Part shown: in pieces, positions 6,001-12,000 of the stretch
Layout: each line of letters starts with the position of its first letter
Position numbering within the stretch: the first letter of the stretch is position 1
NCBI RefSeq assembly: GCF_965641715.1
Contig: NZ_OZ282453.1
Strand: one strand, 5' to 3'
DNA from: Escherichia coli
GTDB taxonomy: Bacteria; Pseudomonadota; Gammaproteobacteria; Enterobacterales; Enterobacteriaceae
DNA: 64,000 nucleotides
Position numbers: made by a program

Positions 6001-9000
6001 GCGTCATGGCGCTCATGCAACTGCTCGTTCAGCGGCCCGTTGGTGCGGTTAACAATACGCCCACGTTTCACCGCCGGACGTTCGCCCACTTCTTTTGCCC
6101 AGCGTTGCACATGCTTATAACTGCCCGCATCAAGAAACTCTGCGGCATCATATACGCCGCCTAACACCACATTGCCAAACCACGGCCAAATCGCCATATC
6201 CGCAATGGTGTACTCATCGCCCGCAACAAACTTATGCTGCGCCAGTTGCTTATCCAGCACGTCGAGCAGACGTTTGGCTTCCATGGTAAAGCGGTTGATG
6301 GCGTACTCAATTTTCACCGGCGCATAATGGTAAAAGTGACCAAAACCACCGCCGAGGAACGGTGCCGCGCCCTGTAACCAGAACAGCCAGTTCATCGTTT
6401 CAGTACGCTTTGCCAAATCCTGCGGCAGGAAGTAGCCAAATTTCTCCGCCAGATAAAGCAGGATCGAACCAGACTCAAACACGCGGATCGGCGGATTATG
6501 CGTATGATCGCGCAGCGCCGGGATCTTCGAGTTTGGGTTCACTTCGACAAAGCCGCTGGAGAATTGATCGCCATCGCCTATGCGTATCAGCCAGGCGTCG
6601 TACTCTGCACCAGTAACGCCCAGCGCCAGCAGCTCCTCAAGCATAATCGTAACTTTCTGACCGTTCGGCGTTCCCAGCGAATAAAGTTGCAATGGATGTT
6701 TGCCAACGGGCAGCGTTTTTTCATGCGTCGGACCAGAAACCGGGCGATTGATATTGGCGAACGCGCCGCCAGCGGATTTATCCCACGTCCAGACTTTCGC
6801 GGGCTGATAAGTATTGTCTGTCATAGTGAGTTGCCTTCTGAGTGGTAGTGTTGAAGCAGTGTAGCAGGTCACTTGCTGTACAGAATGTGAATTTTTTAAC
6901 CCTTTGCGCCAGCCGCTGCGATGAGGTGTATGATTAGTCTGACCTCTGTCCGGTTAATGTCGCTGAGCAGGTAATCAGAGCACAACAATTACGCCAACTG
7001 CTTAGGTTGTATTGTTAAAGGTAAAGTGATGAGCAAAGGAACGACCAGCCAGGATGCCCCGTTCGGGACATTATTGGGCTACGCCCCAGGTGGGGTAGCA
7101 ATCTATTCTTCAGATTACAGTTCTCTCGATCCGCAGGAATACGAAGATGACGCCGTATTCCGTAGCTATATCGACGACGAATATATGGGCCACAAATGGC
7201 AATGCGTTGAATTTGCTCGCCGTTTTCTCTTTCTGAACTACGGTGTGGTCTTTACTGACGTGGGTATGGCGTGGGAGATTTTCTCGCTGCGCTTCCTGCG
7301 TGAAGTGGTTAATGACAACATCCTGCCATTGCAGGCATTTCCTAACGGCTCGCCGCGTGCGCCGGTCGCGGGTGCGCTTCTTATCTGGGATAAAGGCGGT
7401 GAATTTAAAGACACTGGCCATGTCGCCATCATTACCCAATTACATGGCAACAAAGTCCGTATTGCGGAACAGAACGTGATTCATTCCCCGTTGCCGCAAG
7501 GGCAACAGTGGACGCGCGAACTGGAGATGGTGGTCGAAAACGGCTGCTATACCCTTAAAGACACTTTTGATGATACCACCATTCTGGGCTGGATGATCCA
7601 GACGGAAGATACTGAATACAGCTTACCGCAGCCGGAAATTGCAGGCGAGCTGCTGAAAATCAGCGGAGCGCGCCTGGAAAACAAAGGCCAGTTTGACGGT
7701 AAATGGCTGGATGAAAAAGATCCGCTGCAAAACGCCTATGTGCAGGCCAACGGTCAGGTGATCAATCAGGATCCGTATCATTACTACACCATTACCGAGA
7801 GCGCCGAGCAGGAGCTGATTAAAGCCACCAACGAGCTGCACCTGATGTATCTTCACGCAACCGACAAGGTGCTGAAAGATGACAACCTGCTGGCGCTGTT
7901 CGACATTCCGAAAATCCTCTGGCCACGTTTGCGTCTCTCCTGGCAGCGTCGCCGTCACCATATGATCACTGGTCGTATGGATTTCTGCATGGATGAGCGT
8001 GGCCTGAAGGTTTACGAATACAACGCCGACTCCGCCTCCTGTCATACCGAAGCTGGCTTGATCCTCGAACGTTGGGCGGAGCAGGGCTATAAAGGCAACG
8101 GCTTCAATCCGGCGGAAGGGCTGATTAACGAACTGGCTGGTGCCTGGAAACACAGTCGTGCACGTCCGTTTGTCCATATCATGCAGGACAAAGATATCGA
8201 GGAAAACTATCACGCGCAGTTTATGGAGCAGGCGCTGCACCAGGCGGGCTTTGAAACGCGTATCTTGCGCGGGCTGGATGAACTGGGCTGGGATGCTGCC
8301 GGGCAACTGATTGATGGGGAAGGGCGACTGGTTAACTGCGTGTGGAAAACCTGGGCGTGGGAAACCGCGTTTGATCAGATTCGTGAAGTTAGCGACCGTG
8401 AGTTTGCTGCGGTGCCGATCCGTACCGGTCATCCGCAAAACGAAGTGCGTCTTATCGACGTATTGCTGCGCCCGGAAGTGCTGGTCTTTGAGCCGCTGTG
8501 GACGGTGATCCCCGGCAACAAAGCGATTCTGCCGATCCTCTGGTCGCTGTTCCCGCACCATCGTTACCTGCTGGATACCGATTTCACTGTTAATGATGAA
8601 TTGGTGAAAACAGGTTACGCAGTGAAACCGATCGCCGGTCGCTGTGGTAGCAATATCGACCTGGTCAGCCATCATGAAGAAGTGCTGGACAAAACCAGCG
8701 GTAAATTTGCCGAGCAGAAAAACATCTATCAGCAACTGTGGTGTTTGCCGAAAGTGGACGGGAAATACATTCAGGTATGTACCTTCACCGTTGGCGGCAA
8801 CTACGGTGGGACGTGTTTGCGCGGTGATGAATCACTGGTTATTAAAAAAGAGAGTGATATTGAACCGTTAATTGTGGTGAAAGAGTAATACATGTTGTAG
8901 CAATCCCGTACTGATTATGAAGAATAGTCAGTACGGGGATTAATCAAAATATTCAATATTTATATATTCAAATATTTATTCATTTCATATGTGAATACAT

Positions 9001-12000
9001 TAACCAGCAGAATGCCTGGGTTCTAATTATTTCTAAAGATTTTTAATGAATGCTTATTGTCTGATACACAAGAAATAACACTCTTTTTATCGTTAAAAAA
9101 TGATATTTCACTTTGCCCACACCGTTAAAGTCACTGATAATGCGTCCGTTCGTAAATTCAAAATGGCGTAATCTAATATATGCTAAATTTATTTGTTGGC
9201 CTTGATATATACACAGGGCTTTTGTTATTACTTGCTCTGGCATTTGTGTTGTTCTACGAAGCAATCAATGGTTTTCATGACACGGCGAATGCGGTGGCAA
9301 CCGTTATTTATACTCGTGCCATGCAGCCACAACTTGCTGTGGTGATGGCGGCATTTTTTAACTTTTTTGGCGTGTTATTGGGCGGACTTAGCGTTGCCTA
9401 TGCCATTGTCCATATGTTGCCAACCGATTTGTTGCTGAATATGGGGTCAACCCACGGACTGGCGATGGTCTTTTCCATGCTGCTGGCGGCGATTATCTGG
9501 AACCTGGGAACGTGGTTCTTCGGTTTACCGGCCTCCAGTTCGCACACCTTGATTGGTGCGATTATCGGCATCGGTTTAACCAACGCGCTGTTAACCGGCT
9601 CATCGGTGATGGATGCGTTAAACCTGCGTGAAGTGACCAAAATTTTCTCCTCGCTGATTGTTTCCCCTATCGTCGGCCTGGTCATTGCGGGAGGCCTGAT
9701 ATTCCTGCTGCGACGCTACTGGAGCGGAACGAAAAAGCGTGACCGTATTCACCGCATTCCGGAAGATCGCAAAAAGAAAAAAGGCAAACGTAAGCCGCCA
9801 TTCTGGACGCGTATTGCGCTGATTGTTTCCGCTGCGGGCGTGGCGTTTTCGCACGGCGCTAACGACGGGCAGAAAGGGATCGGCCTGGTGATGCTGGTAC
9901 TGGTGGGGATTGCCCCTGCTGGCTTCGTCGTCAATATGAACGCGTCCGGCTATGAAATTACCCGTACCCGCGATGCCGTCACCAACTTCGAACACTACCT
10001 GCAACAGCATCCTGAACTGCCGCAGAAGTTGATTACGATGGAACCTCCATTGCCTGCGGCATCTACTGATGGCGCGCAAGTGACGGAGTTTCACTGTCAT
10101 CCGGCAAATACCTTTGATGCGATTGCGCGCGTTAAAACGATGCTGCCAGGCAATATGGAAAGTTACGAGCCGTTAAGCGTGAGTCAGCGCAGCCAGCTGC
10201 GCCGCATTATGCTGTGCATCTCTGATACCTCCGCGAAGCTGGCGAAACTGCCAGGCGTCAGTAAAGAAGACCAGAACCTGCTGAAAAAACTTCGCAGCGA
10301 TATGTTAAGCACCATTGAGTACGCTCCGGTGTGGATCATCATGGCGGTAGCACTGGCGCTCGGCATTGGCACCATGATTGGCTGGCGTCGTGTAGCGATG
10401 ACCATCGGTGAGAAGATTGGTAAGCGCGGCATGACGTATGCGCAAGGCATGGCGGCACAAATGACGGCGGCAGTGTCTATCGGTCTTGCCAGTTATATTG
10501 GGATGCCCGTCTCTACAACACACGTACTCTCATCTGCAGTTGCAGGGACGATGGTGGTGGACGGCGGTGGGTTACAGCGTAAAACGGTAACCAGCATCCT
10601 GATGGCGTGGGTATTTACTTTACCGGCGGCGATTTTTCTTTCTGGTGGGCTGTACTGGATAGCATTGCAGTTGATTTAACCTTCCTGAAAATGCCCGGTC
10701 CTGGCGATCGGGCATTTCCATTTTTGGCTAGTGATAACCACGCGCGGTCATAAAATCCGTAATCGCTTTTTCTGCATCAACCAGCACCTGTTCCAATGGC
10801 TGATTGGCATCGATATCAACCAGTTGTGCACCACCAAAGGTTAACTGTGGCGTTATGGCAATCTTCCTCGCCAGCGATTCCCGTTTATGGTCGGGTTTAC
10901 GCATGCAGGCAACTTCAAGGTCAACATTGAGTTTGATGACCAGATCAGGCTTATGGCTCGCCATCCAGTGAAACGCTTTACGTTCCTGGCTTGCCAGCCA
11001 TGAGACAAAACGACCACCTTCAACGTTAGGTGGGAACACCGTACCATCGTAAGCGCCAGGAATTTGGTCCTGAGGATAACGGTCGGTTAGAACAATTAAC
11101 CCGCGACGACGACAGGCAAGCATATGACGAAAGCGCAGTAAGCGACGGGCGACAAACGCTGTAATTACCAGCGCCGGAACTGGTCCTGGCAATTTTTTTG
11201 CTGTTTTCACCTGATTTCGTTCAATTGTTTTATGTAAGGATTTTCCCATCAACGGTAATTTTGTCACTGCACGACCGACATTTCCGGCCTGTTTTCCTAA
11301 ATGAACTCTTTCGGCAGCACCATATTTTTCGACAACGGTAATGAGATGTTCGCACACCGTTGACTTGCCTGAACCATCGCTACCAATAACGGCAATTAAT
11401 GGAGGTGTTATTGACTGCATGAATATATCCTTAAATTTAAATATCCATCCAAAATATTTATTTGGTTAATATGTTTTTATGAAAGCGTAATTCAGGTCAA
11501 TGTCACAATTAACCATTGTCACAATAAGGTTGAACGGATATTCTGAGCACGGACCACGTAATATTCAATACATTATTTACTGCCGGGTTTTTCGTGAATC
11601 AACGTAATATGTCAATAATTAATTCCACGCCAGTGCGTGTTATTGCCATTGTAGGATGTGATGGTTCAGGTAAATCGACCCTCACGGCAAGCCTGGTAAA
11701 TGAACTGGCAGCAAGAATGCCAACAGAACGCATTTATCTCGGGCAATCGTCCGGGCGAATTGGCGAATGGATTTCACAGCTCCCTGTTATTGGCGCACCT
11801 TTTGGGCGTTATCTGCGAAGTAAAGCGGCACATGTGCACGAAAAGCCCTCAACACCGCCTGGCAATATTACTGCGCTGGTTATCTATCTGCTTTCCTGCT
11901 GGCGGGCGTACAAGTTTCGCAAAATGTTGTGTAGAAGCCAGCAAGGCTATCTGCTCATCACCGACCGCTACCCGCAGGTTGAAGTGCCGGGTTTTCGCTT

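Follow-up and report, generated by a model that had tools for sequence, protein, structure and literature searches.

The spacer between gss and pitB in Escherichia coli is probably a three-part junction rather than a single control element. It comprises a conserved RNA hairpin behind gss, an AT-rich block that would be the neutrally drifting edge of an old insertion, and a copy of the pitA promoter and 5' UTR upstream of pitB. The spacer is an ordinary intergenic region and occupies positions 8889-9179 of the window (the entire 64,000-nucleotide stretch of DNA that was analyzed), between the last base of the gss stop codon (8888) and the pitB ATG (9180) in the ORF list. The upstream neighbor, gss (7029-8888, + strand), encodes glutathionylspermidine synthetase/amidase, and pitB (9180-10679, + strand) encodes a protein of 499 amino acids that is 81% identical to PitA. 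Matching E. coli genomes in RefSeq carry the same annotation for both genes. With 291 bp, the spacer is as long in the window as in MG1655. Its G+C content is 29.6%, versus 52.3% for the whole window; an AT content this high is reached in 0.65% of all 291-bp windows and in three regions of the 64 kb. The AT-rich gap described in the initial annotation is thus real, and the limits given for it are exact.

The gss hairpin is found at 8904-8938 (+ strand), beginning 16 nucleotides 3' of the gss stop codon. It consists of a 15-bp stem (8904-8918 paired with 8924-8938) closed by a 5-nucleotide loop, with a predicted folding energy of -23.5 kcal/mol (z = -5.2). Covariation supports the structure: 96% of cells in the alignment are paired, seven pairs are changed on both sides, and none of 500 shuffles reaches the observed score. 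Within Escherichia alone, two pairs in the stem are compensatory, and all one-sided changes yield G.U on the + strand. Like intrinsic terminators, the hairpin is stable, rich in G+C at the base of its stem and placed right behind the gene, and homologous hairpins 3' of gss in Citrobacter are followed by a T-rich sequence that provides a complete or partial U-tract. In contrast to intrinsic terminators, the E. coli hairpin lacks a U-tract (at least five U in the 8 nucleotides directly after the stem); it is followed by ATTAATCA, with three U in the first 8 nucleotides. The 15-bp stem is also longer than usual, A and U predominate in its upper half, and a terminator scan did not report the hairpin. 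The gss transcript may end in this hairpin or be protected by it. The hairpin would predate the arrival of pitB, and in Escherichia the T-rich tract behind it may have given way to foreign DNA that entered at its foot.

The second part of the spacer is the distal AT-rich block (8939-9052, no strand assigned), which has 21% G+C and no sequence constraint, and which forms the gss-side edge of Escherichia-specific DNA. Constraint was compared segment by segment, with four-fold sites as the neutral benchmark. The block is 42% different from its counterpart in E. albertii, where four-fold sites differ by 33-49%, and 25% different from that of Escherichia sp. MOD1-EC7003, where four-fold sites differ by 15-20%. 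By this measure the block evolves at the neutral rate, whereas the gss hairpin and the proximal 127 bp are the constrained parts of the spacer. It shows no similarity to pitA upstream regions above a shuffled control. An origin as a repeated or mobile element was considered and rejected, because the block is single-copy in E. coli genomes. The initial annotation also called the sequence repeat-like, and a modest repeat does exist: according to Tandem Repeats Finder, a 16-bp unit, ATATTCAAATATTTAT, occurs twice in tandem at 8949-8979 (no strand assigned), with 93% matches, and the string quoted in that annotation maps to 8958-8990. E. coli strain 23AR0303 carries three copies of the unit ATATTCAAATATTTAT, and the repeat is not kept in E. 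albertii. Copy number probably changes by slippage.

The arrangement of neighboring genes suggests how the block came to lie behind gss. Among 81 loci, pitB directly follows gss in three, all in Escherichia. In Citrobacter werkmanii, the tRNA-Phe gene pheV lies 110 bp after gss; in the window, pheV is at 50423-50498 (- strand), about 41.5 kb away. Because pheV is only 110 bp behind gss in C. werkmanii, the DNA from about 8939 to 50422 appears to be an insertion in Escherichia. The AT-rich spacer would thus be the far boundary of a pheV-linked segment of about 41.5 kb, in the manner of tRNA-linked genomic islands, and the likeness extends to the lineage-specific DNA adjoining the 3' end of tRNA-Phe at the known pheV integration hotspot of E. 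coli. The segment differs from such islands in that no att-like direct repeat of the pheV 3' end was found at the gss-side boundary. It also differs from mobile islands in being present in nearly all E. coli, and it is therefore old and fixed rather than mobile. The block of about 115 bp would then be the edge of the DNA inserted between gss and pheV, drifting neutrally without a sequence-specific role and acting, if at all, through its composition. If the region is AT-rich because it is the neutrally drifting edge of an old insert beside the pheV hotspot, it need not be a control element.

Composition could nevertheless matter. It is possible, though doubtful, that pitB is kept cryptic by H-NS or another nucleoid protein that nucleates on 8939-9110 and extends from there across the promoter. 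As in H-NS-silenced regions, the G+C content is far below the genome average, with 21% in 8939-9052 and 29.6% in the whole spacer, placing this 21-29% G+C sequence in the lowest 0.65% of windows, and AT-richness is kept in E. albertii even though the sequence has turned over. However, neutral drift under AT-biased mutation accounts for the composition without any function, and the H-NS high-affinity motif TCGATAAATT has no match in the spacer at up to two mismatches. The literature describes pitB as poorly expressed or cryptic, and a published, transcriptionally silent protein-occupancy domain, able to silence a lac reporter, adjoins the region, covering yghS, yghT and the 3' half of pitB; its limits (U00096.2 3131588-3133385) exclude the spacer. 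Such silencing is compatible with the three-part arrangement, to which it would add a layer.

The third part of the spacer is a paralogous copy of the pitA promoter and 5' UTR (9095-9171, + strand), recognized by local alignment to positions -87 to -6 of MG1655 pitA. Identity is about 83% over 77 nucleotides, counted from the alignment, whereas four-fold sites in the coding sequences of the two genes are 48% identical. The same promoter and UTR module is conserved in 25 pitA lineages of Enterobacterales, and none of the 27 aligned pitA and pitB sequences departs from GATAATGCG. The copy includes a -35 hexamer, TTGCCC (9113-9118, + strand), and a -10 hexamer, GATAAT (9136-9141, + strand), both found by promoter scan and both identical to those of E. 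coli pitA, as is the 17-nucleotide distance between them. They match the sigma-70 hexamers at 9 of 12 positions, with spacing inside the 16-18 nucleotide range. A generic promoter scan is not significant by itself (two sites, versus 2.9 expected), but neither hexamer varies among 10 E. coli strains, MOD1-EC7003 and E. albertii, and both are conserved beyond the neutral rate. The two genes also have in common the flanking ATATTTCAC and AAAGTCACTGATAATGCG, a discriminator rich in G+C and the UTR motif TCAAAATGGCGTAA.

The function of the pitA promoter is known from the literature. According to the Reg-Seq supplement, which cites Mendoza-Vargas 2009, pitA transcription starts at 3,637,612 (U00096.3), 8 nucleotides after GATAAT, and a -10 footprint covers -21 to -3 of pitA, over bases homologous to the pitB -10. 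RpoS holoenzyme has been found to bind in vitro within the spacer (12.6-fold, with a cut-off of 3), and the peak is about 41 bp upstream of the pitB ATG. We infer that the pitB copy fires from the position homologous to the pitA start, which alignment places at 9148. In the proposed model, pitB would be transcribed from a copied pitA promoter that arrived together with the gene and that preserves its layout: an A-rich upstream tract, -35 TTGCCC, a 17-nucleotide spacer, -10 GATAAT and the G+C-rich discriminator. The overall model of a hairpin, a drifting AT-rich edge and a copied promoter is the one we consider likely to be correct.

Homology between pitB and pitA ends at -53, and unrelated AT-rich DNA lies beyond this point in pitB. 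The pitA upstream region contains a 23-bp segment that includes an FNR-like TTGAGTGAAATCCA, and this segment is replaced in pitB. (Myers 2013 places an FNR site of pitA at -56.5, which is not reconcilable with the mapped pitA start and was left out of the inference.) In addition, the pitB discriminator is 1 nucleotide shorter, the core of the UTR reads CGTAAAT rather than the CATGTCC of pitA, and the distance to the ATG is 2 nucleotides longer. A predicted MgrR pairing site of pitA (+9 to +30, -20 kcal/mol) is not kept in pitB, where the best value is -9.6. The weak and divergent expression of pitB presumably stems from its differences to pitA; those that may be responsible are everything upstream of -53, the shortened discriminator, the altered UTR core and the lost MgrR site. 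A further stretch, 9053-9094 (no strand assigned), beginning CTTATTGTCTGATACACAAGAAATAAC, lies upstream of the promoter and outside the pitA homology. It changes at less than the neutral rate, with 0 of 42 differences relative to both MOD1-EC7003 and K-12 and 17% relative to E. albertii. This Escherichia-conserved block is a candidate binding site for a pitB-specific regulator.

These observations partly uphold the proposal in the initial annotation that the AT-rich sequence is the likely control element of pitB. The spacer does contain the pitB control region, but the AT-rich, repeat-like stretch itself is the least constrained part, since its 42% difference from E. albertii equals the neutral rate.

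The conserved promoter also bears on whether gss and pitB are co-transcribed, with the spacer as intercistronic sequence and the hairpin as a processing or stability element. In this scheme, the hairpin terminates poorly because the U-tract is absent. The genes are on the same strand, no canonical terminator was detected between them, and the sequence after the hairpin is AUUAAUCA instead of a run of U residues. However, an intact and highly conserved pitA-type promoter is directly upstream of pitB, the literature reports in vitro binding of RNA polymerase holoenzyme to the spacer, gss and pitB became neighbors recently in evolution, and annotation treats them as separate units. Co-transcription is therefore an unlikely explanation for the spacer. 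Some read-through from gss into pitB may nevertheless occur.

The predicted pitB 5' UTR (9148-9179, + strand) has a start assigned by homology to pitA. The initial annotation had described a long leader, but with the promoter at 9113-9141 and the predicted start at 9148, the 5' UTR would be only about 32 nucleotides long. This leader shows 0 of 32 differences relative to E. albertii, MOD1-EC7003 and K-12, contains the motif TCAAAATGGCGTAA at 9158-9171, and has no obvious Shine-Dalgarno sequence. The pitA 5' UTR, which begins GUUCAUGUCCUCAAAAUGGCGUAACG, is nearly invariant across Enterobacterales. When a consensus RNA structure was computed for the aligned promoters and leaders, a weak 7-bp stem over the start codon emerged, without compensatory changes. 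Conceivably, though the odds are against it, the 30-32-nucleotide pit 5' UTR is an unrecognized cis-regulatory element of pitA and, in modified form, of pitB. If so, a possible mechanism is that the stem UGGCGUA/UAUGCUA hides the start codon and sets translation in response to some signal.

Other roles for the leader were considered and set aside. The mini-ORF ATG GCG TAA is unlikely to be translated, because its ATG is not conserved, being CTG or ACG in some lineages. Pairing of MgrR with the shared leader motif was rejected; the strong predicted duplex involves codons 4-10 of pitA and is absent in pitB. The 5' end of MgrR is complementary over 11 nucleotides to CACTGATAATG; this sequence precedes the start site, and the match is probably due to chance.

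Pho boxes consist of at least two CTGTCAT-like 7-bp direct repeats, 11 bp apart, that replace the -35 element. The initial annotation noted that pitB is reported to be poorly expressed and phosphate regulated, and proposed a search for such a site. In the corresponding model, PhoB would act on pitB via a Pho box in the whole 290 bp, which would be transcribed as a long leader or serve as a control region. When the IUPAC consensus CTGTCATAWAWCTGTCAY was searched with mismatch counting, the best match had 7 mismatches in 18 positions, which is at chance level (about two expected, two seen), and neither half-site, CTGTCA or TGACAG, occurs in 8800-9300. RegulonDB-derived lists and older literature put pitB into the PhoB regulon, and one resemblance to genes with Pho-box promoters such as pstS and phoA is that its product transports phosphate. 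However, pitB differs from these genes in having no Pho box or half-site and in having a normal -35, and the conserved pitA-type promoter leaves a leader of only about 32 nucleotides. Moreover, Fitzgerald et al. 2023 (PMC10294691) found neither a PhoB ChIP-seq peak at pitB nor PhoB-dependent regulation of its expression, and took pitB out of the pho regulon. Regulation by PhoB is thus not supported, and the model of a Pho box within a long leader is very improbable and largely refuted. Harris 2001, as described in papers that cite it, reported pho-dependent repression of pitB, and the three-part model leaves this repression without explanation.

A small RNA or small protein that annotation has missed is hardly credible as a product of the spacer: small ORFs of 23-30 codons do occur, and locus tags of strain 14EC033 skip one number between gss and pitB, but 0 of 59 sampled full-length matches, drawn from 5257 RefSeq genomes with the spacer, have anything annotated in it, an Rfam search of the spacer and the pitA upstream region at a permissive threshold (E <= 1) gave nothing relevant and nothing beyond chance, conservation of the ORFs is lacking (the distal part changes at the neutral rate, with indels), and the ATG of the ORF at 9100-9171 is absent from the pitA homologue.

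A Pho-box-controlled long leader upstream of pitB is a tempting idea, and the present analysis removes it as unsupported. In its place stands a concrete anatomy that can be tested: it says where the promoter lies, predicts the transcription start and itemizes how pitB departs from pitA. The importance of this result beyond annotation is small, and the sole point of wider interest is the unusually conserved 5' UTR of the pit genes. If this UTR does act in cis, the changed core in pitB (CGUAAAU) would account for the differing expression of the two genes.

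The spacer between gss (ending at 8888) and pitB (starting at 9180) is 291 bp long (window 8889-9179) and equal in length in MG1655 (NC_000913.3 3136372-3136662). Window 8700-9400 matches 5415 of 5426 complete E. coli genomes, with the flanking genes annotated as gss and pitB. The initial annotation had described the spacer as AT-rich and repeat-like, and this is confirmed: its G+C content is 29.6% (window, 52.3%), just 0.65% of 291-bp windows reach an AT content this high, and a two-copy, 16-bp tandem repeat at 8949-8979 contains the repeat-like string that was quoted. The accompanying interpretation, a long leader acting as the likely control element of a phosphate-regulated pitB, stands only in that the spacer holds the pitB control region. 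The region is ordinary. Its parts, a terminator-type hairpin and a promoter bordering an old DNA insertion, are all of known kinds, and the spacer has no known RNA family, conserved small ORF or repeat family. No annotated feature lies inside it in 59 sampled full-length matches, from 5257 RefSeq genomes carrying the spacer. RefSeq locus tags in strain 14EC033 skip from RS20055 (gss) to RS20045 (pitB); the feature RS20050, formerly called in or near the spacer, is now unlisted.

The closest known counterpart is the pitA promoter. The likeness was first seen in a primer printed in a paper, and was confirmed by aligning the MG1655 pitA upstream region. Window 9095-9171 is about 83% identical to pitA positions -87 to -6, compared with 48% at four-fold degenerate sites of both coding regions. 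The common blocks are ATATTTCACTTTGCCC (which includes the -35), AAAGTCACTGATAATGCG (which includes the -10) and TCAAAATGGCGTAA (in the UTR), and none of 55 pitA upstream regions is homologous beyond the 9095 end. A metagenome scan with a PitA/PitB N-terminal pattern returned about 100 enterobacterial loci; the same promoter module occurs throughout an alignment of 25 distinct pitA lineages and two pitB sequences, with GATAATGCG invariant. In the Reg-Seq supplement, which cites Mendoza-Vargas 2009, pitA transcription starts at 3,637,612, 8 nt after GATAAT; a functional -10 footprint is also listed there at -21 to -3 and coincides exactly with a block common to both genes. Transfer by alignment predicts a pitB transcription start at 9148 with a 5' UTR of 32 nt, rather than a long leader. 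In vitro RpoS-holoenzyme binding in the spacer (12.6-fold, cut-off 3; Shimada et al. 2017), at a coordinate that after conversion falls about 41 bp before the pitB ATG, counts as independent support for the promoter. A generic promoter scan, which alone is not above chance, picks the same TTGCCC-17-GATAAT site. A 23-bp segment, GAGTGAAATCCATACAGGGGGCA, is found upstream of MG1655 pitA (1027-1049 of the pitA locus) and is missing from pitB. With two preceding T residues it forms TTGAGTGAAATCCA, an FNR-like site. The FNR site given for pitA at -56.5 (Myers 2013) is incompatible with this motif and with the mapped start site.

Four-fold degenerate sites served as the neutral reference for an alignment of twelve Escherichia sequences; these sites differ by 33-49% from E. 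albertii, 15-20% from Escherichia sp. MOD1-EC7003 and 4-6% from K-12. The distal AT block (8939-9052, 21% G+C) differs by 42% from E. albertii and 25% from MOD1-EC7003, has indels, and by this measure evolves at the neutral rate, so the stretch that drew attention initially is the unconstrained part. In strain 23AR0303 the 16-bp AT-rich unit is present three times (third copy at about 447-462 of its locus, homologous to window 8949-8979), which shows slippage in this block. The mid block (9053-9094) differs by 17% from E. albertii and 0% from MOD1-EC7003 and K-12, and is a candidate site for a pitB-specific factor. Differences from E. albertii are 9% in the promoter (9095-9147) and 12% in the gss hairpin (8904-8938).

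The hairpin pairs 8904-8918 with 8924-8938 (-23.5 kcal/mol, z = -5.2). At nearly every gss locus, a hairpin directly follows the stop codon. Three Citrobacter species have a recognizably homologous hairpin (CCCCG...CGGGG) followed by TTTT, TTATTT or TTGTAT. When these are included, 96% of alignment cells pair, seven pairs are changed on both sides, and none of 500 shuffles reaches the observed covariation score. The Escherichia sequences by themselves show compensatory change at two pairs (C-G to U-A and U-A to C-G); their one-sided changes give U.G on the plus strand, where the opposite strand would have C.A mismatches. The hairpin is a structure formed by the gss RNA. Because the Escherichia form is without a U-tract, it misses one hallmark of intrinsic terminators, and may be a 3' stabilizer or weak terminator.

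A Gss protein scan of one genome per species returned 80 gss loci. Those in which pitB comes next are all from Escherichia (E. coli, MOD1-EC7003 and E. albertii); none of the other 78 loci, most of which reach about 5 kb past gss, has pitB downstream of it. In Citrobacter werkmanii, tRNA-Phe lies 110 bp after gss; synteny resumes here at the same tRNA, pheV (50423-50498, minus strand), so that about 41.5 kb separates the gss hairpin from the pheV terminator. This segment (8939-50422) has pitB as its first gene, and no att-like tRNA 3'-end repeat was found at its gss-side boundary. The only other stretches of the 64 kb where G+C over 291 bp drops to 33% or less, at 22053-22638 and 33107-33723 (minimum 25.8%, at 33353), are both within it. 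In other Citrobacter species the gss hairpin is followed by different DNA, which makes the site look like a hotspot for insertions. In several E. coli strains, IS1/IS5 insertions or IS-mediated deletions affect the 3' end of gss, the spacer or the 5' end of pitB (L003 6127-6900, L088 about 728 and L092 1873-3385, loci from other genomes). An intact copy of the region is absent from about 4-5% of the 5426 complete genomes, which fits a dispensable pitB.

Silencing of pitB by nucleoid proteins is plausible given the AT-rich composition and a neighbouring silent domain, but that domain covers yghS through the 3' half of pitB rather than the spacer, and the H-NS high-affinity motif has no match in the spacer with up to 2 mismatches. 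Phosphate control through a Pho box in the spacer is very unlikely. In the spacer or close to it, the best match to the Pho-box consensus CTGTCATAWAWCTGTCAY has 7 mismatches in 18 positions (chance alone predicts about two matches of this quality in 291 bp, and there are two), and 8800-9300 has no CTGTCA half-site. Fitzgerald et al. 2023 (PMC10294691) saw no PhoB ChIP-seq signal upstream of pitB and no PhoB-dependent expression of the gene, and judged pitB an unlikely PhoB target. Repression of pitB by the pho regulon, attributed to Harris 2001 in citing papers, is indirect if real.

A single feature is left without an explanation: the short pit 5' UTR is exceptionally conserved. The predicted pitB 5' UTR (9148-9179) has 0 of 32 differences from E. 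albertii and from all other sequences. Its pitA homologue (30 nt, 1113-1142 of the pitA locus) is almost invariant in 25 enterobacterial lineages that have diverged at third codon positions. It matches no Rfam family and shows no obvious Shine-Dalgarno sequence. The sole structure from RNAalifold is a 7-bp stem over the start codon (UGGCGUA with UAUGCUA), with no compensatory changes. For the small RNA MgrR (mgrR, 1318-1415 of its locus), an 18-bp duplex between its nucleotides 48-69 and pitA codons 4-10 (+9 to +30, 1151-1172 of the pitA locus) is predicted at -20.1 kcal/mol. The pitB counterpart (9188-9209) has diverged, with a best duplex of -9.6 kcal/mol, so pitB should escape MgrR control. 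Eleven nucleotides at the MgrR 5' end (5-15, CGUUAUCAGUG) complement CACTGATAATG (9133-9143), which spans the -10 of both genes; because this site lies upstream of the start site, the match is probably a coincidence.

In the most likely arrangement, transcription of gss stops at the old hairpin or close to it, pitB is expressed from a core promoter copied from pitA, and the AT-rich filler between them has no sequence-specific function. Relative to pitA, pitB has wholly different DNA upstream of -53, a discriminator 1 nt shorter, a changed UTR core and a lost MgrR pairing site. These differences are candidates for the weak, divergent expression of pitB.
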